A DNA stretch of 26,073 nucleotides from a virus, in the IMG/VR virus record IMGVR_UViG_3300011115_000073, positions 1 to 26,073 of that record; one strand, given 5' to 3'. The notes under the pieces were generated by a model. It had not been told where the DNA came from, made no database searches, and saw only the letters and a program-made list of their open reading frames with translations. Both the position numbers and the translations under genes were made by a program. Shown one piece after another: positions 1 to 26,073 of the stretch. Position 1 is the first letter of the stretch; each line of letters opens with the position of its first letter.

Positions 1-127
1 AACAGGTTTGTATAAATATATCTATGCAAGTGAGCAATCCACTTGCTACTGGTTTGGTGAGTATCTCTCGTCGCTTGTTGGTAACATAATTTAATTGTAA
101 TAGGGAGGCCATCCTTATTACGCCAAA
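1..127. repeat. Left copy of the exact 127-bp terminal redundancy (identical to 25947-26073)
   Basis: Compared base by base: aacaggtttgtataaatat...ccttattacgccaaa is present at both ends. Confidence 0.97.
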
Positions 128-5162: not shown

Positions 5163-5225
5163 TTTGTTTCTCCTAAGGGATACAATGCTGACGCTAAGGC
5201 TTCAGCAAGGTTCTATGTTTATTTA

Positions 5226-13898: not shown

Positions 13899-14431
13899 TC
13901 ATTTCTTTCCTATAATCTCCAACAACTGCTCTTGCGAGTATTGGGGTGCTACGCCATTCACTTCATCTCTTTGGTGTTGTTCCCATGTTAAACTAACATC
14001 ATACACCTGCAGATCAAATGTTGTGGCCCTATTAATTACATCACTAGGTAAAACTCCATAATGCTTGGCCATGGCACCTATTGTAATTAACTTGACTGTT
14101 GCCCAGTCACTACTGTTGATGACATGGCCTTTGACTTTCCCAAGTTTTCATTTATCTTTACCAATGCGGCAAAACAAATGTCCACTGGCAACATGTCATC
14201 TTCTTTTAATACTGGTTGACCTGATTCATTCAAAACAATCTTACGAATCAGTTTATTCAATTCTGTTCCATCCTCATCCTGCTGAACTTTAAAAAAGTTA
14301 AAGTAGGTATTGAGGTCTATATTATCATACATGTAGAATGTGATGGTATCCCCGTAGGTCTCTACAATCTTGGGATCATCAAGATCCATTCTAATCAGTG
14401 TGGGTTTTTTTGCGACTTCGCTTATTAACAT
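13899..14431 (-). CDS. Tail assembly chaperone frameshift product, GT-like (~177 aa, -1 shift at 14135-14141)
   Basis: The -1 frame is open from just upstream of the heptamer to the TGA at 13899-13901. Frame arithmetic was checked: G codons start at coordinates congruent to 1 mod 3, and T codons at 2 mod 3. Confidence 0.6.
14087..14431 (-). CDS. Tail assembly chaperone, G-like (114 aa)
   Basis: Acidic small protein between tail tube and tape measure. It contains the slippery heptamer in frame near its 3' end. Confidence 0.75.
   Translation of the reverse strand: MLISEVAKKPTLIRMDLDDPKIVETYGDTITFYMYDNIDLNTYFNFFKVQQDEDGTELNKLIRKIVLNESGQPVLKEDDMLPVDICFAALVKINENLGKSKAMSSTVVTGQQSS
14135..14141 (-). 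promoter_or_regulatory. Programmed -1 ribosomal frameshift heptamer G GGA AAG
   Basis: The minus strand reads TTG GGA AAG TCA in the zero frame (X XXY YYZ). This is the same heptamer as the phage lambda G/GT site. Five nt downstream, GGCCATG (14123-14129) can pair with CATGGCC (14067-14073), enclosing a TGACTG/CAGTCA hairpin. Confidence 0.65.
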
Positions 14432-14434
14432 ATC

Positions 14435-14605
14435 TTATTTTCCAATCTTATCTTTTAAATGATGTATGGTGCTTAGTAGAAAACGCAATCTTGCGTCTGC
14501 TTGTTCCAAGTCCTTACGACTGCACTTTAGTTCTGCAATGCATTTGGCTGCTTCTGCTTCCATGCTCTTGAGAATATCTTCAGTGCTCAACTTATCAAAA
14601 ATCAT
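14435..14605 (-). CDS. Small coiled-coil protein (56 aa), missing from the ORF track
   Basis: Perfect AGGAGG lies 6 nt upstream of the ATG at 14605. Hand translation: MIFDKLSTEDILKSMEAEAAKCIAELKCSRKDLEQADARLRFLLSTIHHLKDKIGK. The stop is 3 nt before the next ATG. Confidence 0.6.
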   Translation of the reverse strand: MIFDKLSTEDILKSMEAEAAKCIAELKCSRKDLEQADARLRFLLSTIHHLKDKIGK

Positions 14606-14640
14606 AACTTACCTCCTAGGGCTAGTTACAGATATTTAGT

Positions 14641-14670
14641 CCATGACAAAGCCCCCAGGGTAGGGGGCTT
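14641..14670 (-). terminator. Hairpin / partial terminator after the tail tube gene
   Basis: AAGCCCCC-UACCCU-GGGGGCUU (8-bp GC-rich stem) followed by a weak UUUGU tract. Likely attenuating rather than complete, because essential tail genes lie downstream. Confidence 0.5.
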
Positions 14671-14696
14671 CTATCACTTTATTAACTTGTGGTTAA

Positions 14697-15248
14697 TTAA
14701 GCAATGTTGGCCAATGTATAATCCCCGTTGCATTCTATGGTAAGAGGACTGGTCCATACTGGCGAATCTGCACTAACTTTTGGAGCCAGGCTAGATACAA
14801 AGCCATTACCCATGATTAAGTAGTTGTCAGGAGTTTGTCCAGTAGTAGCACCACTTGGAGCAATCATGAATGCCACTTGTGTGCGACTGTTGCTTAGACC
14901 AAATACACCTGCTGTAACTGCTGTTGTAGTTGCACCAGTTGTTCCAAAGAACAGGGTTGGGTCAAGCACAAAGTTACCACTTAGGCTGTTGGTTGAAACT
15001 GTAGTAATTACAGATTCACCAGACTGGTCAAGTTGCTTCCAACGGAATGAACCGTTTGCATTGTTGATAGTTACATCTTGTAGACCTGTTAATTCAATGG
15101 CTCCTGCAACCAGTGTCAAAGCACCAGTAGCAGAATCAACAGCACTATAAAAGTCACTGGCCGTTAAGACCGCGTGTGCTGTTGCATCATACTTAACAAG
15201 AACAAGTTTAACGCGATTTACCGCGGTAGTTGCATTAATATATGCCAT
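14697..15248 (-). CDS. Major tail tube protein (183 aa)
   Basis: AAGGAAC RBS. Size, beta-rich Thr/Ala/Val composition, position upstream of the chaperones, and a downstream hairpin. Confidence 0.7.
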   Translation of the reverse strand: MAYINATTAVNRVKLVLVKYDATAHAVLTASDFYSAVDSATGALTLVAGAIELTGLQDVTINNANGSFRWKQLDQSGESVITTVSTNSLSGNFVLDPTLFFGTTGATTTAVTAGVFGLSNSRTQVAFMIAPSGATTGQTPDNYLIMGNGFVSSLAPKVSADSPVWTSPLTIECNGDYTLANIA

Positions 15249-15259
15249 TTTTTTGTTCC

Positions 15260-15652
15260 TTAATTAATTGTGTAAAACCTATACTCAAAAGTATAAGTTA
15301 CGACATCTCTGTCTATAGAAGCATCATAATCAAATTCTTTTCTGAAAGATGTTGGTATGTTGCTCAAATCTTTTGCTACTCTTAAAGTAGTCAGGGTTGT
15401 ATCAAGATCGCTGGGTCTATTCTTGGCGTCTACTGCAAGATATCCTTGGACTGTTGTTACAGTTTCCATGATATCATCGCCATCAAGCACCTGAATGACT
15501 GGAGTCTGTTTAGTGGTTGGTTCATCAAGATAAACTCGTTTCTTGTTGGTCAGGTATAAAGGACTATCTCCTTGTGCCCAAGGCAACTCTGGTGAGGTAG
15601 TAATGCCACCCGCCAGGTTTGCTTTAAGATAATTTAATAGTTCTGTTCTCAT
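15260..15652 (-). CDS. Head-tail joining / neck protein candidate (130 aa)
   Basis: ATGA overlap with the upstream gene at 15649-15652. Position between capsid and tail tube. Confidence 0.5.
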   Translation of the reverse strand: MRTELLNYLKANLAGGITTSPELPWAQGDSPLYLTNKKRVYLDEPTTKQTPVIQVLDGDDIMETVTTVQGYLAVDAKNRPSDLDTTLTTLRVAKDLSNIPTSFRKEFDYDASIDRDVVTYTFEYRFYTIN

Positions 15653-16155
15653 CTTACACGAATCAAGTTTAATTTACTTGGAGCCTTATCACTTGTATTA
15701 ACTGTGCCGTCACCAGCAAAGTCATAAAAGTCTCCCGCCTCAATCAATTCCACAAACAACTTTTCACTCTTATCTTCATAATACTTGATCTTTTGAACTT
15801 CAGCACTATCTAGATTTGAAAAGTCTGCTACCTTTGGCAAAATATATTCTGCTAAGGCCAAGTATACACACAAGTCAGTAAAGTCTGATTTGCGTGATAC
15901 TATTCTTGCGGCATTGACTGGGGGAATTAGTCTGACATCATTCTTCAAAGAGGCATCACGAGTGAATTGGTAATCTTTCCACCATCCACTGCTTTTAATG
16001 CGTGTCAGTAATCTCTCACTGGCACGAATCAATGCATCTTCTACAACAACATCAGACAATCCCTCATTACCTTCAAATAACCTTTGGTCGCGATCCACTA
16101 CATCCTGGTAGTCCGCAAAACTGCGAACCGTTGTTCCTGAAATAATAAACGACAT
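15649..16155 (-). CDS. Head-tail connector / adaptor candidate (168 aa)
   Basis: First gene after the major capsid gene. Function assigned by position only. Confidence 0.5.
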   Translation of the reverse strand: MSFIISGTTVRSFADYQDVVDRDQRLFEGNEGLSDVVVEDALIRASERLLTRIKSSGWWKDYQFTRDASLKNDVRLIPPVNAARIVSRKSDFTDLCVYLALAEYILPKVADFSNLDSAEVQKIKYYEDKSEKLFVELIEAGDFYDFAGDGTVNTSDKAPSKLNLIRVR

Positions 16156-16176
16156 CGTGACCTACTTTATTGATTA

Positions 16177-16983
16177 TTAAACATTAACAAGTTTAATACC
16201 GCGTGTGGCGTCAATAACACCAACACCAGCGTGTAAACTTGCAACAATGTCGTTACCAACTGCGGCTGCTCTGCGTTGAACTTCTAAGTCAACATTCTTG
16301 AACATAGCGATACGCAATGCGTCTTGACTGAAGATGAAGCCTTTGTTTGTTCCAGAAACATAAGCACTTTGGAATAAACGAACACCACCAACTGTGGCTA
16401 AGAAACCATTTGTCAATGCTTCAGATTGGAATGTGCCACCAGCGTATGCGGCAGAACCAATTGCTTTCATTAGTGTGGCTGCTTGAACTGGGCTCAAGAT
16501 ACCAAACAATTGACCCATTTCACCAGCACCACGGATCTGTGCAACTGCGTTGAAAATTGCATCAACACTCATTGGATCGCTGTCACTTGTAGACGCTGTC
16601 AATGAATTCATTGCGGCGATAACATCTGCGTCAAATGCCTTGGCAACTGATTGACCTAATACACGGCCAAGTTCAGATGGATCAACTGCACCTAGATCAC
16701 GCATGACATCACGAGCGGCGTAGATGTTGGCTGTGATTGTAACTTTAGTGTCAGCAATGCCAAGTGCGGCAAAGTCTTCAGCGTCGTGACTTGCACTAGT
16801 CAACTTGCTGGCTGTAACAGAACCCATAACTGGAATCTGTGCGGAAATGCTACCTGCTGGTAGATTAACCATGGGGATAAGACCACCACCTAAGAATAGG
16901 GAGTTTTCTTGTGCTGTATAGACTGTGGCTGCTTTTGTTGCAACTACCAAACTGTCTAAATCATATGCTGTATTGAAAGCCAT
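16177..16983 (-). CDS. Major capsid protein (268 aa)
   Basis: AAGGAAAATATAAAATG RBS and start. It immediately follows the scaffold gene. Ala/Gly/Val-rich sequence of the usual size for small HK97-fold coat proteins. Confidence 0.8.
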   Translation of the reverse strand: MAFNTAYDLDSLVVATKAATVYTAQENSLFLGGGLIPMVNLPAGSISAQIPVMGSVTASKLTSASHDAEDFAALGIADTKVTITANIYAARDVMRDLGAVDPSELGRVLGQSVAKAFDADVIAAMNSLTASTSDSDPMSVDAIFNAVAQIRGAGEMGQLFGILSPVQAATLMKAIGSAAYAGGTFQSEALTNGFLATVGGVRLFQSAYVSGTNKGFIFSQDALRIAMFKNVDLEVQRRAAAVGNDIVASLHAGVGVIDATRGIKLVNV

Positions 16984-17000
16984 TTTATATTTTCCTTAAA

Positions 17001-17675
17001 TTAAATTTTGCCGTTGCGTCTTGCTTCAGCGTATATTTTCCTGTGGTCACTGCGAGTGAGATCTAATGAACCTAAATCAACTGGTCCAGGACTGTTGTCA
17101 CGGACTCCACCATTTGTGTTAGTAGTAGCAGGAGTAGCAGAAACAAAGTGGGGATTGGACTGAAGCCATTCTTGAACATATTGTTCAACACTTAATGGTT
17201 TGCCCTTTTCACTGTATCTCACTGTGCCTTTTTCATCTAACACTTCAACATCGCCTTCTTCATTTAGTCTTAAATTGTTCCTGAGAAGTTGTTTCACTTG
17301 TGCAGGATTCACACTACGATATTGTGCGGCGTAGTTCATCAATGGTTGTTCTAATTTAAACTCACGAATGATATTATCGCGTTTGGCAATTTCAGCCTCC
17401 TTCTTGGAGATTGCATCTGCCATGACCTTTTCAAAGTTTCCTTTTTTCACTTCAAGATCTTGCTGTTGTTTGCGATAGTTGGTTACGATATCTCGCAACT
17501 CATCTGGTTCGCCTAGATCAGCATATTTGCCTGAGAGTTTCTTTTCTAGTTGAGTCTTGCTCTTGGCTAGAATAGCATTTACCTCATCTTGAGTAAAAGT
17601 CTTTGATACCTGACTGTTTGTTTCAGTGGATGTGTCAGTGTCCACGGTTGCTGTTGTGTTTTCTTGATCCAACAT
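17001..17675 (-). CDS. Capsid scaffolding protein (224 aa from the ATG at 17675)
   Basis: Acidic N-terminus, then TFTQDEVNAILAKSKTQLEKK and charged helical repeats typical of scaffolds. The track start at 17711 is a TTG without an RBS. The ATG at 17675 has GAGAGG 9 nt upstream. Confidence 0.7.
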   Translation of the reverse strand: MLDQENTTATVDTDTSTETNSQVSKTFTQDEVNAILAKSKTQLEKKLSGKYADLGEPDELRDIVTNYRKQQQDLEVKKGNFEKVMADAISKKEAEIAKRDNIIREFKLEQPLMNYAAQYRSVNPAQVKQLLRNNLRLNEEGDVEVLDEKGTVRYSEKGKPLSVEQYVQEWLQSNPHFVSATPATTNTNGGVRDNSPGPVDLGSLDLTRSDHRKIYAEARRNGKI

Positions 17676-17723
17676 AAATCCCGCCTCTCTTGGAGTATTG
17701 TTTTGTGACAACTTCTTGCTGTC

Positions 17724-19082
17724 TTATACTGCTAGGTTGTCACCTGCTGTATTGGGTTGAGGTGTTGCATCCACTGTGAGATCCAACAGGCCTTTAATTT
17801 TTTCTACAATTGATGTTTTAACAGCAGGGTCATCAACGGTGCTATAAGTTTTAATCAACTGGTCTAATTCGTTTTGTGTATCGTGAATAGCAAATGAGTC
17901 TGGGTAACAAATTTCACCTGACCATGATAAGTTTTGATACAGGGCATAAAGTTTCCATAACTGTTCTTCACACAATTCAATGTTGTCTGCCATTTCACTT
18001 AAGCGGCTGTTGAGCAAAGCAAACTCTACTTCTCTGCTGACCCCACTCATGACTTGTGCTTCGTTGGCACGGATACTGCCTGTGTTGGCCATCTTGTCAA
18101 TACTGCTGACAATATTATTAATGGCTGTGTAAATGCTTGACACTTCTTGTCCTGAGAACTCTAGCACGAATGGTTTTAAGGCAGGGTCCATATTCAACGG
18201 CATATGAATAAGTGCACCTGCTCCTGAACCTACATTAGTATCTGGAGTGGTCACAAGACTTGGATGACTACCAAGACGAATTGCCTGATCACATTCGCTA
18301 GTCAAGTTATAAATCATTCTTGAGGCATCTGCAATGTCTTCAATACTGCTGATACCCAAGCCACGAATGGTTGAAGTTTGATTGTATAAAATAACAGCAG
18401 GGATAACACCTAGTTGATTTATTTCAATGCTTTTGTTTTTTACTTCTTGCTTTTCATGATTGATGGTTGTGGTTTGAATAAACTCTGGTGTCCACTCTTT
18501 AACAACTGAAACACTATTGTTGCTGTCTTCAATGTATTTGAAATATGAAAGTTCATAACGACCACTTTCTAATCTAGTCCATGAGAAATCTGTGACCAGT
18601 AATGGTGACAACAAGTTAAGATAAGGACGCACACCAGCGGCAAGTTCATCTGCTCTAGTGATGGCACCAATGTTGGCTTTGCTCATGATTAACCATGAAT
18701 GTCCAAACACATTAGCCCAGGTTGCGGCCTGCTTCATGAATGAATCTAAATCACGGCCTTCATGATCAGCATCAGCCAAGAAAGCCATTAATGCTGGGTC
18801 ATTTTCTAAACCTGTTAATACACGCTCAGGTTCAGTTCTAAACAAAAAGGAAATATAAGTGGAAATGATACTCCGTGGATGATTATCATATGGGGTATTG
18901 GCCAAGCGTTGATTGTATTCGTTGGCTGTTTCAAGTTGGTAGCGTGTAAGATAGCCACCTTTGCGATAGGTCTCTCCACCTGAGAAACTATCGTATAAAA
19001 ACTCGTAGCGTTGTCTGTTACGACTGACAAGCGGGTTCACTGAGGCCGCGTCAGCGTAGTTCTGGCTTAGAATTGTATCCAT
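17724..19082 (-). CDS. Portal protein (452 aa)
   Basis: Follows the large terminase and precedes the scaffold. Size and N-terminal pattern (YEFLYDSFSGGETYRKGGYLTRYQLE..EYNQR) are consistent with portals. Confidence 0.75.
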   Translation of the reverse strand: MDTILSQNYADAASVNPLVSRNRQRYEFLYDSFSGGETYRKGGYLTRYQLETANEYNQRLANTPYDNHPRSIISTYISFLFRTEPERVLTGLENDPALMAFLADADHEGRDLDSFMKQAATWANVFGHSWLIMSKANIGAITRADELAAGVRPYLNLLSPLLVTDFSWTRLESGRYELSYFKYIEDSNNSVSVVKEWTPEFIQTTTINHEKQEVKNKSIEINQLGVIPAVILYNQTSTIRGLGISSIEDIADASRMIYNLTSECDQAIRLGSHPSLVTTPDTNVGSGAGALIHMPLNMDPALKPFVLEFSGQEVSSIYTAINNIVSSIDKMANTGSIRANEAQVMSGVSREVEFALLNSRLSEMADNIELCEEQLWKLYALYQNLSWSGEICYPDSFAIHDTQNELDQLIKTYSTVDDPAVKTSIVEKIKGLLDLTVDATPQPNTAGDNLAV

Positions 19083-19151
19083 TGCTTTTCATTTCCTTGT
19101 ATAGACCGTCTGTGATCAGTAGATGTCTGGTATCTTTATTTATGCTCATGC

Positions 19152-20393
19152 TTAGGCCAGTTGATGCCCCCATCGCTGTGGTGATCGTGCTTCCACTGGT
19201 TTAGTGATTGGATATAGATATTGAATCATGTAGGTCAAGGCATCCGCTCCGTGCGACCAGTCTAATGCACCATTCTTGTCAGGTATCATTGTGCCTTCTT
19301 TGTATGCCCAGTTCTTTAAGCAGGCAATTGTTTTTTTACATGACGGATCTATAGTAAATCTTGTGCTTCCATCTGGTCGTTTAAAGAACAAACTATTGCC
19401 TGCGTTTATTCTATCTCTTACAAGTGGATGCTGCCTATGATATCTAGTTTGAAACCCTGCCATCTCTAATAGTTTGACATCAGTATTGCCGTTGGCACTT
19501 GTTTTTCTTGCAACTGAACTTGGATCTGGCCAAATTATAATGGAGTTTCTAGGATATCTATTTCTTATCTCATCAATCATTTCTGTAGTGTTTGAGTTGT
19601 CAAGATATATCTCATCATAGATCTCAATGCCTACTTTACTTTGACGACCAATAACAGCACTCATTGGAGTTATGTTAAAGTCCATGCCAATATAAATGGG
19701 TTCTGTTTCTGTTGGCTTACGCACTTCGCCTATGTTATGCTCGCCAAAGTCGCCAAAGATAACTCCAGCAAAATTAACGAAGGTTGCCATGTATTCTTGT
19801 TGAAACACTTTGGGACTTAGATCTTGTCTTGCTTGTTCAACCTCTTCTGCATCAACGAAAGAACCTTCTTCAGTTGTGTAACTAAAACTGGCCCAGTTCT
19901 TTTTAGTCAAGTGGTTGTCGTATAAGTCTCTGGCAGCCTGATTGCCTGCTTTGGGAGTGCCAATGAACAAGGCATGACCTTTTTGATCTGCCAAGGATGG
20001 TCTTATAATCTGGCTCCATATTTCATTTAAGTTTATATCGCAGAATTCATCCATACAGAAAAATGAGATTGATTCACCACGCAAGTTATCTCCTTGCTCT
20101 GCTGACTTCAAACAGATTTGACTATTGTTAGTGAGGCGAATCGTAAGTTCAGATTCATTTGTATCTGCAATCCAATTTAACTTACCCAGTTTCTTTTTTA
20201 GTTTGCTCCACACAAGGCTTTTTGCTTGTTGTCTGGAACCAGTAAGATACCATACTGTGCTGTTGGGCTTACTGGCAAAGCGAGCAAGTTCACGCATAGC
20301 AAGAAATGTTTTGCCACCACGACGCCCTGCTACTACAACTCTAAAGCGTGTGGTGCAATCAGCAATCTCTTGTTGCTTGGCACTTAGCGGCAT
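19152..20393 (-). CDS. terL: Terminase large subunit (413 aa)
   Basis: Walker A is VVVAGRRGGKTF and Walker B is ISFFCMDEF. The nuclease-domain aspartate motif is IYIGMDFNITP. Confidence 0.9.
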   Translation of the reverse strand: MPLSAKQQEIADCTTRFRVVVAGRRGGKTFLAMRELARFASKPNSTVWYLTGSRQQAKSLVWSKLKKKLGKLNWIADTNESELTIRLTNNSQICLKSAEQGDNLRGESISFFCMDEFCDINLNEIWSQIIRPSLADQKGHALFIGTPKAGNQAARDLYDNHLTKKNWASFSYTTEEGSFVDAEEVEQARQDLSPKVFQQEYMATFVNFAGVIFGDFGEHNIGEVRKPTETEPIYIGMDFNITPMSAVIGRQSKVGIEIYDEIYLDNSNTTEMIDEIRNRYPRNSIIIWPDPSSVARKTSANGNTDVKLLEMAGFQTRYHRQHPLVRDRINAGNSLFFKRPDGSTRFTIDPSCKKTIACLKNWAYKEGTMIPDKNGALDWSHGADALTYMIQYLYPITKPVEARSPQRWGHQLA

Positions 20394-20578
20394 AGCACAT
20401 CGTTAATGTGATCAGCGATACGCATGGCTTCTTCTGGTGAGACAAAGTAACTGCGGTTGTGAACTGATCCAGTTACACCATCAAGTATTGTAGTTGTAAT
20501 TTTGAGTTGTAGTTCTTTTTGTGTTAGCCAACTTAAACTAATTTTCAATTCATAGTCATCAAGTTTCTGTATCAGCAT
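20384..20578 (-). CDS. Small hypothetical protein (64 aa) between terS and terL
   Basis: The ATG at 20578 is preceded by AGGAAGAA. It overlaps the terS end by 20 nt and the terL start by 10 nt. It is the only frame that fills the 20394-20558 gap. Confidence 0.45.
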   Translation of the reverse strand: MLIQKLDDYELKISLSWLTQKELQLKITTTILDGVTGSVHNRSYFVSPEEAMRIADHINDVLCR

Positions 20579-21005
20579 CTTGTTCTTCCTGTTCATCATC
20601 AATGGTGTCTTCATCCATATCATCAGTCCAAGGTAATGGACGCTTGTCATCACTGGTGGTTCCAGTTTCATTTTGAGCCAGCATATTACGGCCCAACCAC
20701 ACAAGCATAGGAACGGAACCTTCAAGTGCCACTCGTAACTGGGCTTGGCGTAGACTGATTTTGAGTTTGTGCCGCCCAATCTGAAGATTTTCCGCAAATC
20801 CTCTGCGTAGTGTATCTTCTTTGACACCAAAATAGTTGGCAATATCTCTGTCTGTGCAACCCAAGGAAGCCAAGTGTTCTACTTCATCAAAGCACACAGG
20901 TATCTTGTTGCGTCCAATAACTTTGGCCAGTTTTGTAATCTCCACAGTATGTCCAGTTTGCGGACCAGGTTTGCCATGTGGTTTATCGTTTGATTCTTCG
21001 TTCAT
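20559..21005 (-). CDS. terS: Terminase small subunit (148 aa from the ATG at 21005)
   Basis: HTH segment LASLGCTDRDIANYFGVKEDTLRRGF, then GRHKLKISLRQAQLRVALEGSVPMLVWLGRNMLAQ and an acidic tail, a pattern typical of small terminases. The track start at 21029 is a TTG. Confidence 0.75.
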   Translation of the reverse strand: MNEESNDKPHGKPGPQTGHTVEITKLAKVIGRNKIPVCFDEVEHLASLGCTDRDIANYFGVKEDTLRRGFAENLQIGRHKLKISLRQAQLRVALEGSVPMLVWLGRNMLAQNETGTTSDDKRPLPWTDDMDEDTIDDEQEEQDADTET

Positions 21006-21351
21006 CTTCTTCCGTTGTCCTTTCAGCAATAAAGCCTAGTAGTTCTGGGTTGGCAAAGAATATTTGTGCCCATGCCATACCTAGGTTGTGAACTTGATGT
21101 TCTGTTAATTCTAAATGTAGTAAGTCACTGACAACATGTGTGACTTCATGTAGTAATGTGTCCAAGCACTGAATACCTTTGAGTTGATCTTGTATTCTAA
21201 TTTCGTTGTGTGCCAAATCTTGTTCACCAAACGCACTTGACATGATGCGTTGTGGGATCCACTGTATGTCCGTGACATTACCTAATATTTCTATTTGAGT
21301 ATATGTTGTAGGGTGAGGTGGATTAACCAGTTTGCGTGGTTGTGTTTTCAT
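20983..21351 (-). CDS. HExxH zinc-metallopeptidase-like protein (122 aa from the ATG at 21351; 148 aa if the GTG at 21429 is used)
   Basis: HEVTH at 21136-21150 was verified at nucleotide level (CAT GAA GTC ACA CAT). The context FGEQDLAHNEIRIQDQL...LDTLLHEVTHVV resembles ImmA/IrrE (M78)-type minimal peptidases. It is the first ORF after the switch terminator. Confidence 0.55.
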   Translation of the reverse strand: MKTQPRKLVNPPHPTTYTQIEILGNVTDIQWIPQRIMSSAFGEQDLAHNEIRIQDQLKGIQCLDTLLHEVTHVVSDLLHLELTEHQVHNLGMAWAQIFFANPELLGFIAERTTEEDERRIKR

Positions 21352-21494
21352 TTCTATGCAATCTCCAAGTCTATTCACATACTTACCTGGTGTAGAAAAG
21401 AAACTTGCTCTTAGCCGTGAAAATGCCACTTTTAGTCAATGGCGTTGACTGGGCTGTGGCCGCCAGGTCCTAAGGTAGATAGGATAACTTTATT

Positions 21495-21531
21495 TAAATA
21501 AAAAGGAAACCCCGTATCTCACGATAGGGGG
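21495..21531 (-). terminator. Strong intrinsic terminator between the early block and the late block
   Basis: The minus strand reads CCCCCUAUC-GUGA-GAUACGGGG (9-bp stem with one mismatch, GNRA tetraloop) followed by UUUCCUUUUUAUUU. Confidence 0.75.
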
Positions 21532-21586
21532 CTCCAGGATTTAATTACACACATTGCTAGGACCACACCACATAATCCCAGCAACT
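21497..21586 (-). ncRNA. Candidate ~90-nt leader RNA / sRNA bounded by a promoter and a terminator
   Basis: The predicted start is ~7 nt below the TATACT box. The 5' stem-loop is UUGCUGGGA-13 nt-UCCUAGCAA (21554-21584, 9 bp with one G-U). A linker and then the terminator hairpin follow. Confidence 0.35.
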
Positions 21587-21592
21587 ATATTT

Positions 21593-21621
21593 AGTATACT
21601 ACTTTTATGCGGGTATGTCAA
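21593..21621 (-). promoter_or_regulatory. Near-consensus sigma70-type promoter TTGACA-17 nt-TATACT
   Basis: The -35 TTGACA is at 21616-21621 and the -10 TATACT at 21593-21598 (minus-strand reading). The spacer was counted as 17 nt, and the upstream flank is AT-rich. Confidence 0.65.
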
Positions 21622-21625
21622 TGAA

Positions 21626-21689
21626 TTTTGATAAAACTTGATTTCTTTTCAAAAATTCAACTCTGATTAAATCTGATTTCTTTTCAGAG
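21626..21689 (-). repeat. Two tandem 29-nt hairpin/inverted-repeat units, 35-nt period, with compensatory stem changes
   Basis: Plus strand: ttttgataaaacttgatttcttttcaaaa (21626-21654) and ctctgattaaatctgatttcttttcagag (21661-21689). They share the core TGATTTCTTTTCA. The outer arms are TTTTGA/TCAAAA versus CTCTGA/TCAGAG. Confidence 0.7.
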
Positions 21690-21690
21690 T

Positions 21691-21945
21691 TTAACATTGT
21701 AATTTACGCACAAACTCTAGTTCTGGATCATGATAACTTATTTCTAATACGCTGTCTTGCACATTTCTAATACTAATAATGTCAACATCTGGCTGTCGTA
21801 TTGTTATTGTGCATAAGCCTAGGGCCTCATCAGCATAAAACTGGTTCAACACAGGATCATCAAATTCCACTTCTGAAACTATATTGGCTTTAAATTTTAC
21901 AAATGCTTGTAGTGCATCTTGTAGTGTTAAGGGGTATGTGAACAT
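21691..21945 (-). CDS. Hypothetical protein (84 aa), last early ORF
   Basis: The ATG at 21945 makes an ATGA-type overlap with the upstream ORF. No motif recognised. Confidence 0.6.
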   Translation of the reverse strand: MFTYPLTLQDALQAFVKFKANIVSEVEFDDPVLNQFYADEALGLCTITIRQPDVDIISIRNVQDSVLEISYHDPELEFVRKLQC

Positions 21946-22151
21946 TATAATTCAAACTCCAATTCCCTATGTTTGTATACTCTTGACAAGTTGTATTCAT
22001 CTAATCCTAAAATATCCACACAATACCCTGCTAATTTACATACAAATGCATATTCTTCAGCATCATCCTTGTTGCCAAAAAACTTTACATAATACTCTTT
22101 GCTTAACAATCCAGTTCTGCATTTTGGCACAACTAACAAATGTTTTCTCAT
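21945..22151 (-). CDS. Hypothetical protein (68 aa from the ATG at 22151)
   Basis: The track start at 22166 is a TTG. The ATG at 22151 has AAGGGA 8-9 nt upstream. Confidence 0.55.
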   Translation of the reverse strand: MRKHLLVVPKCRTGLLSKEYYVKFFGNKDDAEEYAFVCKLAGYCVDILGLDEYNLSRVYKHRELEFEL

Positions 22152-22175
22152 ACCAGTCCCTTTCAAATACTATGA

Positions 22176-22308
22176 ATGCTACACACAAAACCATTCAAAA
22201 CTTTTTGCTAAAAATAAATTTATTTTTTATTATTTTTTTATTTTTATTTTTTATTTCTTTTTTGCTACAGTTTTTTAAAAACACGGTTTGTGTGTAGCAT
22301 CTGTAGCA
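22176..22308. other. AT-rich element bracketed by inverted repeats; candidate replication origin
   Basis: A 16-bp inverted repeat, ATGCTACACACAA(A)ACC (22176-22192) / GGTTTGTGTGTAGCAT (22285-22300), has one bulge. A second IR is GCTACAG (22264-22270) / CTGTAGC (22301-22307). There are four TGCTACA/TGTAGCA sites. Positions 22209-22263 are 55 bp with a single C. Confidence 0.4.
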
Positions 22309-22310
22309 GA

Positions 22311-24230
22311 TCAATCCTTTTTATTGGATCTAACGCTATTTAAGATGCTTTCAACATCTATTCTTGGTCTTACCATTGCGGCTTCTAGGGCTTTGCCACT
22401 AGCACCATCAATAAAAGCATCTGGAGTTGGCGGTGTTTTAGTTTGACTAAACACAGTTCTTAATTGTTGACCCACTGCTTTTAATCTACGGACACTTTTA
22501 CCATACTGTTGTTGTTCAACAATATAACGCTCAAAATCTTCTTTATGTGAACTAATTTTACCATGTTCTAAAGCACCACGATGAAAAATATTACACTGAG
22601 CACCGTTGGCAATACGAGCATTGACTTTATAACAATAACCTTCATCCAACAAGTATGATTTGATGCTTTCAGTGCAGGATTTAAGTTGCTTGCTAGACAC
22701 AGCATTTCGTTCGCTTTGTATTACTTTATAAATTTCATGAACTTCATGCACAGTAATAATGTCTGGGCTGTTGGCAATAATATGATCTGCTGTGCATTTG
22801 ATGGCATCGCGTTTGTATTCAGCAATATCTTCCCAATCTTGTCCACGCAGGGGCTCTAAACTATAACGCGGCCCTTTAAATTTTTGATCCAAGTAATTTA
22901 ACATCTGTTGACTGGCTTCTCGTCCTTGCCAGTCACGAGTCAATACTTTTCTTAATACTGTATCTCCCACCATAAAGTCTGACATGTCATCTGAGTTGAT
23001 GCCTTCTGCTTTTAACAATTTACGGCAATAGTTTTCTCCATGTGCTTTGTCCAACATCTTAACAGCATTTTCAGCAAATGTGCTGGCACCAACTTTAATT
23101 GGACTTACACGCATCATTTGTGGACCATCTTCAAATGGCAACGGAAACTGGTCTTGATTGCTACCCCATGCATAAGAAATACAGTTATCCACTTCCATTT
23201 CTACACCATATTTTAATTTGATATAATCTTTAATACTACCAGTAAAGTTTTTAATCTTATTCCATTCACTGCGTTCAGGTATTTCATCACCGTAAATGAA
23301 TGTCTTGTTTAATTTAAAACCATTAAAACTGCTGTCAATTGTTTCCCACATGCCAGTAAAGCGTAGTTCTGCTCCCAAGACATTTGAAAATATAATATCA
23401 AACAATGCGTTCTTACCAACTTTACCTTTGCCAAATATCACTGGCATACTCAACATGTTGTTGCCAATGTCAGCATGTAATACACCATACATCCATTTTT
23501 CCAACCAGTCTAAATTTTCTTGTTTACTACCAACCCAACGCTGTTCATCATCGTTCCACATGATAGAACAACCACTTAGTGCAAACAACAATGCTTTAAT
23601 AATAATTGGACATGTTTGCTGTTGTTCAGTATCATAACTGGGTTGCATAATGCCTTTGAGATCCAACAGATTAAAAGTTTTATCATCTACCATGTCAACA
23701 GTATTAATAAGTTTTTCATATACTCTTGGAGGGAATTGAAAAACTGCTGTATCATCAGCATCTGGAATGTAGACACTGATCTTTTCACCTTCAATCATTT
23801 TCCTAAACATGCTTTGTGCAAAAGGATGTTGAAGTTCAATCCAGTTGGGATACAATGAACTAGGAGGATACCATTTAATCTCAGTGCAATATTCTTCTTT
23901 GTCTGATTTTAAATTTCGTTTACTAGTTGTTAAACTATGAAAATATTTAGATTGACCATCTCTAAAAAAGCAAGGTTGATATTTTTCATAAATGTCCAAT
24001 GCTTTTTGAAAATGACTATATTTTTCTTCTGCTGTAAGTTCTTCTTTTTCTTTGTCCTTCTTTTTCTTATCTTCCGCCTTTAAATCAGCCGCTTTCTTTT
24101 TTTCATCTGCGACTCGTTGCCGCTCAGCCTCTTTGGCGGCTTTGGCAACTGCCTTGGCTTTTAATTCCTCGTCTTTGATTTTTGCTTTTTCAATAGCAAG
24201 TTCTTCTAAAGTTCTGGGTGTGTTATTCAT
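22311..24230 (-). CDS. SF3-type P-loop replicative helicase-like protein (639 aa) with a Lys/Glu-rich N-terminus
   Basis: Walker A GKGKVGKN was verified at 23409-23432. Walker B is TFIYGDEI and the motif C-like sequence is AWGSNQ. The first 70 aa are a K/E/A-rich charged helix. Confidence 0.7.
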   Translation of the reverse strand: MNNTPRTLEELAIEKAKIKDEELKAKAVAKAAKEAERQRVADEKKKAADLKAEDKKKKDKEKEELTAEEKYSHFQKALDIYEKYQPCFFRDGQSKYFHSLTTSKRNLKSDKEEYCTEIKWYPPSSLYPNWIELQHPFAQSMFRKMIEGEKISVYIPDADDTAVFQFPPRVYEKLINTVDMVDDKTFNLLDLKGIMQPSYDTEQQQTCPIIIKALLFALSGCSIMWNDDEQRWVGSKQENLDWLEKWMYGVLHADIGNNMLSMPVIFGKGKVGKNALFDIIFSNVLGAELRFTGMWETIDSSFNGFKLNKTFIYGDEIPERSEWNKIKNFTGSIKDYIKLKYGVEMEVDNCISYAWGSNQDQFPLPFEDGPQMMRVSPIKVGASTFAENAVKMLDKAHGENYCRKLLKAEGINSDDMSDFMVGDTVLRKVLTRDWQGREASQQMLNYLDQKFKGPRYSLEPLRGQDWEDIAEYKRDAIKCTADHIIANSPDIITVHEVHEIYKVIQSERNAVSSKQLKSCTESIKSYLLDEGYCYKVNARIANGAQCNIFHRGALEHGKISSHKEDFERYIVEQQQYGKSVRRLKAVGQQLRTVFSQTKTPPTPDAFIDGASGKALEAAMVRPRIDVESILNSVRSNKKD

Positions 24231-24231
24231 A

Positions 24232-25260
24232 TTATTTTACTCTATACTTGTTCAAAGTTTCTTCTGAAACTTTATTGGGTCTCTTGACCACAATTGGTTT
24301 GCCCCCGTATGCACTAATAAATGCATCACGAGTTTCTTTGCGTATACGGTCTCCATCCCAACCAGTCCATGCCTGCATTCTAATAACAGGACTTGTCAGT
24401 GCTGATTCTGGGTGTGCCATTCTAGCACAAATAGCATCATACTCATTATATGTCATTCCTACACTACGACATAAACTTACAAGTGTAAGCACAGCATGAT
24501 TGCTGGCTCCAGCACCTGCATAATGTAAGCCTACACATGTTGATAAACTCGCCACTACTGCTGATTTATACGCATCAGCAAATTCTGCATCCATTGGCGT
24601 ATTTGAATGAGGTAGTGGAGGAATATAAACTTTGGGTTCACGATATTCAAAATCATATGGATCCAACATAACTCCTTCATTCCAGTTGCTGTATGAACTG
24701 TTTAGACCGCTATGAAAGTAAAAACTTTGACTCATTGTAAATGAACAGTTGTCTACTCCAGGAAATGTTTCTGTAATTGCCGCTTGCCTGCCCCCAATGT
24801 CTGCTTTAAGCAAAGGTTGACTGAATGGTATTACAATACGGAATTTGTGCTTTTCTGGGCTGTGTCTGAATGTAGTATAAAGCACATGCTCAATGTCTTT
24901 ATAAAGATCCTGTGCCGCTTCAATAGTCATCTTTTCATCAACATCTAATATGATGCCGTTGACAGCAACCACATTGGCTTTACTTCTACGAACAGTATTT
25001 GGAATCTCATCGTAGGTGCCTTCTGGAATCCTTTGCCATTCACCATCTACTACATGTCCGTGATAACTGCGTCCAGGTTCTACTGAAGGATCATCTAGTG
25101 TTTTAAACTCCGCAAAGTTAAACATTAAAGTTTCTTCTTTGCTGGGGCTATCCATATGCGTTGTTAACAAGTTGGCAATGTCCTTCCACGATTCGTTAAC
25201 AACATCTGCAACATACGCCTTCTTAACGCTTTTAAAAACTGTTAGTATCATATTATTCAT
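24232..25260 (-). CDS. Archaeo-eukaryotic-primase (AEP)-like primase candidate (342 aa)
   Basis: hhhDhD motif NGIILDVDE. A His-containing strand, SPEKHKFRIVIPF, and a third acidic motif, PGVDNCSF. The helical C-terminal domain resembles primase C-terminal domains. The gene is coupled to the helicase gene. Confidence 0.5.
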   Translation of the reverse strand: MNNMILTVFKSVKKAYVADVVNESWKDIANLLTTHMDSPSKEETLMFNFAEFKTLDDPSVEPGRSYHGHVVDGEWQRIPEGTYDEIPNTVRRSKANVVAVNGIILDVDEKMTIEAAQDLYKDIEHVLYTTFRHSPEKHKFRIVIPFSQPLLKADIGGRQAAITETFPGVDNCSFTMSQSFYFHSGLNSSYSNWNEGVMLDPYDFEYREPKVYIPPLPHSNTPMDAEFADAYKSAVVASLSTCVGLHYAGAGASNHAVLTLVSLCRSVGMTYNEYDAICARMAHPESALTSPVIRMQAWTGWDGDRIRKETRDAFISAYGGKPIVVKRPNKVSEETLNKYRVK

Positions 25261-25676
25261 TATTCAAACAAGTCCTTGACCATGTGAGCCAACTTCTCTG
25301 CTTGTGCAAGGACATCTTCTTTAGTCACTTTGCTTTTAGTTGTTACTGTGTTTTCTTCATTCCAAATCTTACGGCAAACATCTTTCATGGCCTGCACAGA
25401 TTCAAGTTTGTCTTGTATCTGCGGAATTGAGTCCGCGTTTATTTGTAGTTCTTTACTGAGTCTGCCGTTAAGAAACTTGACTAAAAATCCATTATCTAGA
25501 TTGCGTGTAATGAAGCCCCAGTTTTGTGAATTGCGATAGTCGTCCACAACATAAGTTGAATATGTCTTACCATCGTCTATGCCCCACAAAGTAATTGTGG
25601 TCATTGCTGAACCATCGCGGTTGCTGTAGCCGCGGTGTTGAGCCACCACTGCATAAAATTGATCTTTGAATACCAT
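25260..25676 (-). CDS. Hypothetical protein (138 aa), first early gene
   Basis: AGGAGCGATTTATAATG RBS and start at 25676. TAATG coupling to the next gene at 25260. Confidence 0.75.
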   Translation of the reverse strand: MVFKDQFYAVVAQHRGYSNRDGSAMTTITLWGIDDGKTYSTYVVDDYRNSQNWGFITRNLDNGFLVKFLNGRLSKELQINADSIPQIQDKLESVQAMKDVCRKIWNEENTVTTKSKVTKEDVLAQAEKLAHMVKDLFE

Positions 25677-25725
25677 TATAAATCGCTCCTAATTGTTGGT
25701 AATAACTACTGCTATCGTTTGGGCG

Positions 25726-25737
25726 ATAACATGTTAT
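25726..25737. promoter_or_regulatory. 12-bp perfect palindrome ATAACATGTTAT abutting the -10 box (operator candidate)
   Basis: The sequence is its own reverse complement. It covers the predicted transcription start of the proximal promoter. Confidence 0.5.
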
Positions 25738-25766
25738 ATTATACTTATCTTCAATATAAAAAACAA
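25738..25766 (-). promoter_or_regulatory. Early promoter candidate P-proximal: TTGTTT-17 nt-TATAAT
   Basis: The -10 TATAAT is at 25738-25743 and the -35 TTGTTT at 25761-25766 (minus-strand reading). The spacer was counted as 17 nt. It lies ~55 nt upstream of the first ATG. Confidence 0.5.
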
Positions 25767-25830
25767 GAGCCCTTATTCCCTGAACTTTCGCTCCTAATTG
25801 TTGGTAATAACTACTGCTATCGTTTGGGCG

Positions 25831-25842
25831 ATAACATGTTAT
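25831..25842. promoter_or_regulatory. Second copy of the ATAACATGTTAT palindrome
   Basis: Same position relative to the distal promoter copy. Confidence 0.5.
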
Positions 25843-25871
25843 ATTATACTTATCTTCAATATAAAAAACAA
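25843..25871 (-). promoter_or_regulatory. Early promoter candidate P-distal (duplicate copy)
   Basis: Identical sequence 105 bp upstream of the proximal copy. Confidence 0.45.
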
Positions 25872-25946
25872 GAGCCCTTATTCCCTGAACTTTTGCTCCG
25901 TTTGGTGAAATTGACCAAAATACCTGTAGTTGGATGTGAATACTGC

Positions 25947-26073
25947 AACAGGTTTGTATAAATATATCTATGCAAGTGAGCAATCCACTTGCTACTGGTT
26001 TGGTGAGTATCTCTCGTCGCTTGTTGGTAACATAATTTAATTGTAATAGGGAGGCCATCCTTATTACGCCAAA
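25947..26073. repeat. Right copy of the exact 127-bp terminal redundancy (identical to 1-127)
   Basis: Same as the left copy. It implies a circular or circularly permuted assembly, or a short direct terminal repeat. Confidence 0.97.

Follow-up and report, generated by a model that had tools for sequence, protein, structure and literature searches.

The virus DNA analysed here, positions 1-26,073 of the IMG/VR virus record IMGVR_UViG_3300011115_000073 (the window, 26,073 nucleotides in full), carries two similar 29-nt units, a distal unit A and a proximal unit B, in the 339-nt gap between its early (replication) and late (packaging) genes, where they lie between the stop codon of an early open reading frame (ORF) of 84 amino acids (aa) and a near-consensus promoter. 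Judging from the sequence and its conservation in relatives, we tentatively read these units as operator-like double-stranded DNA recognition sites for a putative regulator of this promoter, a reading that is quite possibly correct while falling well short of certainty. Conserved triplets, which keep a 10-bp phase even where the arms cannot pair and are locked in position to the -35 hexamer or lie over it, make a protein-binding DNA element the best explanation of the units; such elements are of a familiar kind, and the motif is new. The original prediction, made from the letters of the window alone, had offered two roles for the units, as a two-hairpin antiterminator RNA resembling that of phage HK022 or as paired DNA sites for a regulator, and the two roles fared differently.

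On the minus strand, along which the gap is ordered as TAA stop (21693-21691), unit A, unit B, promoter, a transcript of ~90 nt, terminator, a conserved block and the first late gene, unit A reads CTCTGAAAAGAAATCAGATTTAATCAGAG, that is CTGA-N6-ATCAG-N6-ATCAG, and unit B reads TTTTGAAAAGAAATCAAGTTTTATCAAAA; the plus-strand sequences are CTCTGATTAAATCTGATTTCTTTTCAGAG and TTTTGATAAAACTTGATTTCTTTTCAAAA, respectively. The positions and layout first given for the units were confirmed, including the 1 nt between the stop codon and unit A and the 4 nt between the end of unit B and the TTGACA hexamer. Measured start to start the units are 35 bp apart, and they are identical at 23 of 28 positions, a repeat that at offsets of 20-60 was found in none of 100 dinucleotide shuffles of the window and in none of 1000 shuffles of the 339-nt gap; chance is therefore excluded. 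The pattern TGA-N7-TCA-N7-TCA occurs three times in the window against 0.35 expected, two of the three being the units, and ATCARNTTTWATCA has no other exact match in the window. A perfect 6-bp terminal inverted repeat is present in each unit and, with flanks, reaches 8 bp, or 11 nt at 91%, in unit A.

Both units had been described as three segments, X1, X2 and X3, the last of which can pair with either of the others, with three coordinated substitutions in the outer pairing around an invariant core. The units do differ in a complementary way, at two outer pairs (4 and 6 counted from the loop, C-G vs T-A) accompanied by a matching change in X2; the core, TGATTTCTTTTCA (minus strand TGAAAAGAAATCA), is invariant in the window genome, but the proximal units of relatives read TGAAT(N)TTAATCA in its place. 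The 35-mers 21694-21660 and 21659-21625 are identical at 26 of 35 positions, with a period that takes in the stop-codon region; the second of them starts with TGAAT, which is the relatives' stop-codon region, unit B with its flank corresponds to the relatives' 'stop codon plus distal unit', and the flank of unit A, AAACTCTGAA, is that of the proximal unit in lineage L146. These matches indicate a recent duplication or recombination, involving units that already existed, as the source of the identical core and long arms. With its 6-8-bp arms and identical 13-nt core, the twin 29-nt form looks like a genome-specific product of a 35-bp duplication or recombination, and on this comparison its identical core and long arms would not reflect long-term selection on a hairpin.

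Relatives were gathered by searches with the 84-aa protein and with the 122-aa product of the first late gene, as well as by gene-context look-ups, and the alignments comprised 18 units from 11 lineages, 15 units from close lineages, and the whole region in 7 close lineages (the window and 6 others). The element is present in relatives of at least 11 lineages, and the window's layout is common to six (L005, L007, L144, L146, L147 and L275). In the set of 18 units the invariant or near-invariant columns are TGA, TCA and TCA at 10-bp steps (TGA-N6/7-TCA-N7-TCA), the core AnTCAnnTTTnATCA being kept in relatives along with the triplets, and the 15 close-lineage units also keep A.TCA..TTT.ATCA with TGA 9-10 bp upstream, while the dyad shared among relatives amounts to only 3-4 bp. 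The TGA stop codon of the relatives' 84-aa ORF is often itself the first triplet of the element, and the layout is retained where the 84-aa protein is only 45-62% identical. Lineage L287, with 45% identity in this protein, has TGAatagaatTCAaaaagaaTCAaacaACTAAATA, again TGA-N7-TCA-N7-TCA with the stop codon as its TGA and with arms that pair over 3 bp, and the same triplet layout is seen in L003 (TTGAATaggATTCAAtaagATTCAAACTAAATA).

Across the 7 close lineages, the units are conserved to the same extent as the -35 and -10 hexamers, the 17-bp spacer being largely free. In all seven the TCA triplets of the proximal unit begin 20 and 10 nt upstream of TTGACA, behind a linker to the -35 hexamer that is constant in length and variable in sequence; the distal unit has no such fixed place, its period being 26, 27, 32 or 35 bp. 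Other arrangements include two units in L002, of which the proximal abuts GATACTAAATA without any TTGACA, CTTGA-N17-TCAAG in L280, and CTTGATAAGGAATCAAG plus TGA-N5-TCA-N7-TCA in L283. In L002, L003, L287 and L280, 3-11 nt separate the unit from the TAAATA box of the promoter that follows it, so that it covers the -35 and spacer region, an operator geometry. The suggestion that the units are DNA sites of a regulator is thus supported in outline, through the conservation of triplet sequence and 10-bp phase and through the constant distance of the proximal unit from the -35 hexamer among the 7 close lineages; they are, however, more aptly seen as sets of half-sites, one inverted and two direct, with centres near -54 and -89, than as simple inverted repeats at -40 and -75.

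If the units are operator-like sites, each would consist of three half-sites, one inverted and two direct (YTGA-N6/7-(A/T)TCAR-N6-ATCAR), which, being one helical turn apart, would face the same side of the helix and could be bound by either a phage early protein or a host factor. In this family of small phages the cis-element always comes after the stop codon of the 84-aa gene and before the promoter that follows, and in the window genome the proximal unit is fixed 7 bp upstream of the -35 hexamer. The bound protein might then tune initiation at the early-to-late transition: it could repress, by occupying its sites or by looping one unit to the other, or it could stimulate from about -54.

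Several observations weigh against the units being operator-like sites. Family searches found no DNA-binding protein or regulator family in any ORF, nor did a fold search with the 84-aa protein, and the core promoter is near-consensus and needs no activator. Lineages L001 and L009 have the same promoter and RNA with coding DNA in place of the units, which are therefore not needed for promoter function as such. In L149 an 84-aa protein 98% identical to that of the window adjoins a different dyad, so that this protein is not the specificity determinant. Unrelated dyads occupy the same place elsewhere (ACGGAT-N13/14-ATCCGT in L277 and L282, AACTTGCT-N15-AGCAAGTT in L009), and such swapped dyads fit a structure-based role as well as they fit swapped operator specificities. 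The distance from unit to promoter varies between lineage groups, the spacing between units follows no helical phase, and one base pair of the putative stem, considered below, gives a weak hint of pairing.

As for the dyads themselves, those at 1753-1800 in L277, 1735-1780 in L282 and 1130-1185 in L009 each stand just before a TAAATA box; that of L277 and L282 has the form (A)ACGGAT-N13/14-ATCCGT(T), with a loop holding TTATCAAA, and L149 carries the dyad of L009 with a C-G to T-A exchange.

The first of the rival explanations takes the units as an RNA element at the 3' end of the early transcript, whose hairpins, either nut-like with an early protein or put-like alone, would give read-through of the terminator at 21535-21500 or protect the mRNA 3' end; we consider this unlikely. 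As far as position goes the original prediction was right, since read-through transcription includes the units and the terminator follows ~90 nt further on. From the 639-aa gene to the units the minus-strand scan showed no terminator-like site, nor did it find a sigma-70-like promoter from the terminator to the first late gene, so that the late genes need read-through or an unconventional promoter. As in boxB-type sites, conservation is higher in the loop than in the stem, and the different dyads at the same place in other lineages have loops of 13-15 nt.

Folding counts against this explanation. For an 81-nt RNA that spans the two units the energy is -12.7 kcal/mol, a stability matched by 41 of 200 shuffles (z = -0.87), and the opposite strand folds no better. 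Contiguous pairing from the loop extends over 8 and 6 bp in the window's units and over 3-7 bp in the others of the 15-unit set, in which pair 6 is Watson-Crick in only five; the AU-rich stems of 3-8 bp enclose loops of 16-17 nt in the homologous units, their stem-only energies range from +2.0 to -8.0 kcal/mol with many of them positive, single units fold at -0.5 to -8.2 kcal/mol, and no stable hairpin is formed by the units of L005 and L002. The covariation on which selection for pairing had been proposed is not borne out by the alignment of homologous regions, in which the units are conserved but the stems are not: outer pairing in the 18 units stands at 72.9% vs 72.0% after shuffling of the columns, with 195 of 500 shuffles at least as high, 141 of 500 shuffles equal its covariation score, and the inner pairing of X3 with X2 reaches 77.8% vs 79.2%. 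Without any excess over shuffles, the covariation seen within the one genome does not generalise. Pair 4 alone stands out (U-A in eight units, C-G in six, U-G in two, unpaired in two), being Watson-Crick in 14 of 18 with two further G-U pairs that are valid only on the sense strand, and this is the hint of pairing referred to above; the pattern largely corresponds to two homologous unit types, distal with T-A and proximal with C-G, which the window holds in swapped order.

In addition, the 10-bp phasing would be meaningless for RNA, the triplets of L287 are intact around a dyad of 3 bp, neither an Rfam match nor an evident arginine-rich N-like protein was found, and the specific comparison with put, an RNA that works on the beta' zinc-binding domain of RNA polymerase and needs no protein factor, is unfavourable. 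In HK022, put comprises ~70 nt downstream of early promoters, and its two stem-loops are long and stable, stem I containing a triplex (PMC9378689). The units resemble it in total length (~65-70 nt), in having two hairpin-capable halves and in lying upstream of a terminator, but differ in their short AU-rich stems and large loops, in a stability equal to that of shuffles and in the lack of covariation. The proposal of a put-type antiterminator is accordingly not supported. An intrinsic terminator for the early operon was also rejected, the units, with their long loops and AU-rich stems, being absent from the results of the terminator scan.

A second rival, to which we likewise assign a small chance, dispenses with a dedicated factor: the proximal unit would be generic upstream DNA, either contacted by the alpha C-terminal domain of RNA polymerase in the manner of an UP element or bent so as to boost the strong promoter, and the distal unit would be a spare copy. 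The UP-element consensus was reportedly defined by Estrem et al. in 1998. Against this consensus, the A/T-rich DNA at -59 to -38 of the strong promoter matches 10 of 14 specified positions, with TTTT spanning -50 to -47 and AAA spanning -43 to -41; close relatives match 9-10 of 14, compared with 7 of 14 for the coding DNA found there in L001 and L009, and the distance to the -35 hexamer is constant. However, the element has an invariant C/G at positions where the UP consensus is free (ATCA at -56 to -53 and at -46 to -43), in L002, L003 and L287 the same element overlaps the spacer and -35 hexamer, a distal copy is present ~35 bp further upstream, where alpha contacts are not expected, and L001 and L009 keep the promoter without the element. 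The conserved C/G and the overlap with the core promoter in other lineages argue for a specific factor rather than an UP element. Bending by phased A-tracts was rejected on reading the sequence, its A and T runs having no common phase.

Somewhat less probable again is that the units are relics, namely the duplicated upstream half of an ancestral promoter that stayed behind after a consensus -35 hexamer with its spacer came in; today they would be at most weak tandem promoters. The arm TTGAAT/TTGAAA with its 16-17-bp spacer corresponds to the -35 hexamer and spacer of the promoter in L002, where the proximal arm TTGAAT stands 17 bp from the GATACT of a TAAATA-box promoter; TTGAAA-16-CAAAAT in unit B was scanned as promoter-like at 9 of 12 positions, and the identity over the 35-bp period together with the flank shared with L146 points to duplication or recombination. 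Relics would nevertheless be expected to decay, and the element is as conserved as the promoter hexamers while the spacer and the neighbouring protein have diverged.

The least probable of the rivals, a replication or packaging site with iteron-like repeats serving the upstream primase-helicase module or the downstream small terminase, draws on the location of the units between replication and terminase genes and on their short phased repeats in A/T-rich DNA, but there are only two copies, the motif is absent from the 105-bp tandem repeat (25683-25899) and the A-rich tract (22218-22263), the element tracks the promoter box and not the terminase genes where genes have been inserted (L001, L003, L287), and the conserved block beside the packaging genes is a better candidate for a packaging site.

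Returning to operator-like sites, two host-factor motifs were compared and not adopted. For a CRP/FNR-type dyad (TGA-N6-TCA) the obstacle is a spacing of N7 in most units and N6 in some, which leaves no rigid dimer site on the first pair. The consensus for IHF is WATCAANNNNTTR, of which the units match WATCAR, with the TTR part one base out of register.

The functionally closest known systems would be phage operator and activator-site arrays with helically phased half-sites, such as those of the lambda CII protein (TTGC-N6-TTGC) and the phi29 p4 protein (CTTTTT-N15-AAAATG). In common with these, the units have short half-sites one turn apart, or a dyad spanning about two turns, in an A/T-rich setting, come as two sites beside a promoter separating early from late genes, and are more conserved than the surrounding non-coding DNA. 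In contrast with them, the half-site (A/T)TCAR is unrelated, it is present in one inverted and two direct copies, and the promoter downstream is already near-consensus; no homologue of CII, p4 or another known regulator was found among the window's ORFs by Pfam and PHROG scans.

The Q- and AlpA-binding elements, the former being in phage 21 two direct 6-bp repeats, are located between the -35 and -10 hexamers of the late promoter (PMC6606751, PMC9371919). The succession of last early gene, strong promoter, short terminated transcript and late genes is shared with these systems, as is a promoter-proximal intrinsic terminator ahead of the late genes (here at 21535-21500), but the units are at -40 to -68 and -75 to -103, outside that interval. 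A possible -10-like pause sequence in the window's early transcribed region differs in relatives. Pfam and PHROG scans found no Q, AlpA or other antiterminator family protein among the ORFs. A Q-binding element was rejected for this reason and because of position; only in L002 does a unit fill the promoter spacer, as Q and AlpA elements do. The region layout is similar to that of lambda PR', 6S RNA and tR', with no Q homologue found in the window.

Of more note as leads than the units themselves are the small RNA with its terminator, the TAAATA box and the leader containing CTACCTTAGGAC. The strong promoter that had been placed next to the units is indeed there, consisting of TTGACA (21621-21616) and TATACT (21598-21593) on the minus strand, 17 bp apart and matching the consensus at 11 of 12 positions; it is the best sigma-70-like site in the scanned stretch 14000-26073, overlaps a TAAATA box, and would start transcription near 21586. 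Both hexamers are invariant, and the spacer variable, in 9 related contigs. What this near-consensus promoter drives is a short conserved RNA, with its own terminator, that directly precedes the late operon. For the stretch 21590-21495 the folding energy is -36.3 kcal/mol vs -21.0 in shuffles (z = -5.19, with none of 200 as stable), and the RNA of ~90 nt consists of a 5' hairpin at ~21583-21555, a terminator hairpin at 21535-21506 and a U run at 21504-21500. In an alignment of 8 sequences, four pairs of the 5' hairpin show compensatory changes, no pair of its main stem is broken, and the terminator is invariant. At about +7 to +15 the window has TGgGATTAT where relatives have AGAGTTAT, a stretch that lies inside the covarying stem. 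The Rfam search of the full window had no hit passing the gathering score, and that of 21200-22000, with E allowed up to 10, gave no meaningful one; a metagenome scan with the terminator sequence gave one locus only, and two short-pattern scans of viral contigs gave mostly unrelated matches and no added relatives.

The leader block that follows, present in 13 distinct sequences, comprises a second TAAATA box, the sequence CTACCTTAGGAC (21478-21467) and a nested hairpin at 21460-21425 (GCCAC..CAGTCAA-cgcca-TTGACT..GTGGC), the inner arms of which vary by lineage yet remain complementary (CAGTCAA/TTGACT, TCTTATA/TATAAGA, GTTAC/GTAAC). The block at 21425-21478 is a candidate late-mRNA leader structure or packaging site.

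On the coding strand TAAATA occurs eight times, five of them within the 6.5% of the window that is non-coding, and it marks the majority of the non-coding gaps. It is usually found as TAAATA(A/T)A(G/C), heading a gene block or right after a terminator, and by analogy could be a phage promoter element. The late promoter element of phage T4 is TATAAATA. In relatives, TAAATA was also seen 4-5 nt ahead of the ATG of a 113-119-aa gene that has no ribosome-binding site, and in L285 TATAAATA precedes the small RNA, with no TTGACA 17 bp upstream. A second, unrelated type of short RNA (GCAACGAATACTGATAATAGGCGTTGTGA followed by a terminator; 4290-4380 in L002, ~3900-4000 in L011 and ~2133-2300 in L282) takes the position of the small RNA between a TAAATA box and the 122-aa gene in these lineages, and it follows that the layout of box, short RNA, terminator and late genes is conserved, the RNAs being interchangeable.

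With regard to the genome as a whole, the first and last 127 nt of the window (1-127 and 25947-26073) are identical, which makes it a complete circular assembly of 25,946 bp. Every long ORF is on the minus strand (30 ORFs were scanned against Pfam and PHROG), and the genes include those for a primase, a DUF5906-type helicase, small and large terminase subunits, a portal, a scaffold, a major head protein, a tape-measure protein, tail proteins and a holin, a set that identifies the window as a small siphophage. The terminase small subunit-like gene and then the large subunit gene follow the 122-aa gene; the large subunit has only ~43% identity to the closest named phages, none of 50,697 phage records matched the intergenic region in a DNA search, and the best-matching named phage has no region comparable to this gap. 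No transfer RNA or transfer-messenger RNA was found, and none of the 30 ORFs belongs to a regulator family according to the Pfam and PHROG scans. Coordinates are collected in Table 1.

Table 1. Positions of the units and of the main features discussed, numbered along the window
Feature	Position	Strand	Remarks
Primase	24232-25260		
DUF5906 helicase	22311-24230		
84-aa ORF	21691-21945	-	early; acidic, isoelectric point 4.2; stop codon adjoins unit A
Unit A (distal)	21661-21689	-	~-103 to -75
Unit B (proximal)	21626-21654	-	~-68 to -40
Near-consensus sigma-70-type promoter	21593-21621	-	11/12 consensus positions
Short structured RNA, ~90 nt	21497-21586	-	fold z, compensatory changes
Conserved late-operon leader block	21425-21496	-	present in 13 distinct sequences
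122-aa gene, first of late (packaging/structural) operon	20983-21351	-	ATG at 21351
TAAATA boxes	21588-21593, 21491-21496, 19137-19142, 14633-14638, 5220-5225	-	

The 84-aa protein has 42 homologues, belongs to no Pfam or PHROG family, and its AlphaFold2 model (predicted local distance difference test score of 76) has no fold match in the PDB at E < 0.5. Its 68-aa neighbour (21945-22151, minus strand), also without a family match, ends like it in an ...ELEF... motif (HRELEFEL and DPELEFVRKLQC for the 68-aa and 84-aa proteins, respectively), and on this resemblance the two may be diverged paralogues. Between the helicase gene and the 68-aa gene (22152-22310, minus strand) there is a very A-rich tract, aaaaaagaaataaaaaataaaaataaaaaaataataaaaaataaa, and a comparable tract is found upstream of the 84-aa homologue in L002 and L004. 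Upstream of the first early gene, 25683-25899 holds two tandem copies of 105 bp that are 99% alike, each with a hairpin (TGTTATCG-cccaaa-CGATAGCA), a TATAAT-like box and a ribosome-binding site region, which could be an early promoter region or a replication origin. Two terminators, at ~200-250 and 21506-21535 (both minus strand), have the loop context tCGTGAGAnA in common, with a GTGA tetraloop closed by C-G; the latter follows the small RNA and the former ends the long operon after the 97-aa gene.

Taken together, the units, the TAAATA box and the short terminated RNA might form an undescribed early-to-late switch in small freshwater siphophages without a known Q, N, sigma or activator homologue, an idea that is speculative and, in our view, rather improbable. 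In one version, unit and TAAATA would possibly make up a new class of phage-specific promoter in which the units serve as the recognition box, with a logic comparable to that of the T4 MotA box plus -10 element; in another, they would possibly load a new factor that lets RNA polymerase pass the terminator of the ~90-nt RNA.

For these uncultured 26-kb phages, which have no recognisable transcription regulator and all of their genes in one direction, it follows that the timing logic must sit in the non-coding gap of a few hundred bases that separates the replication module from the packaging module. Within the repeat, the target of selection appears to be the phased TCA and TGA triplets and not the stems, and attention thereby shifts from an RNA antiterminator to DNA sites, the small RNA and the TAAATA box.

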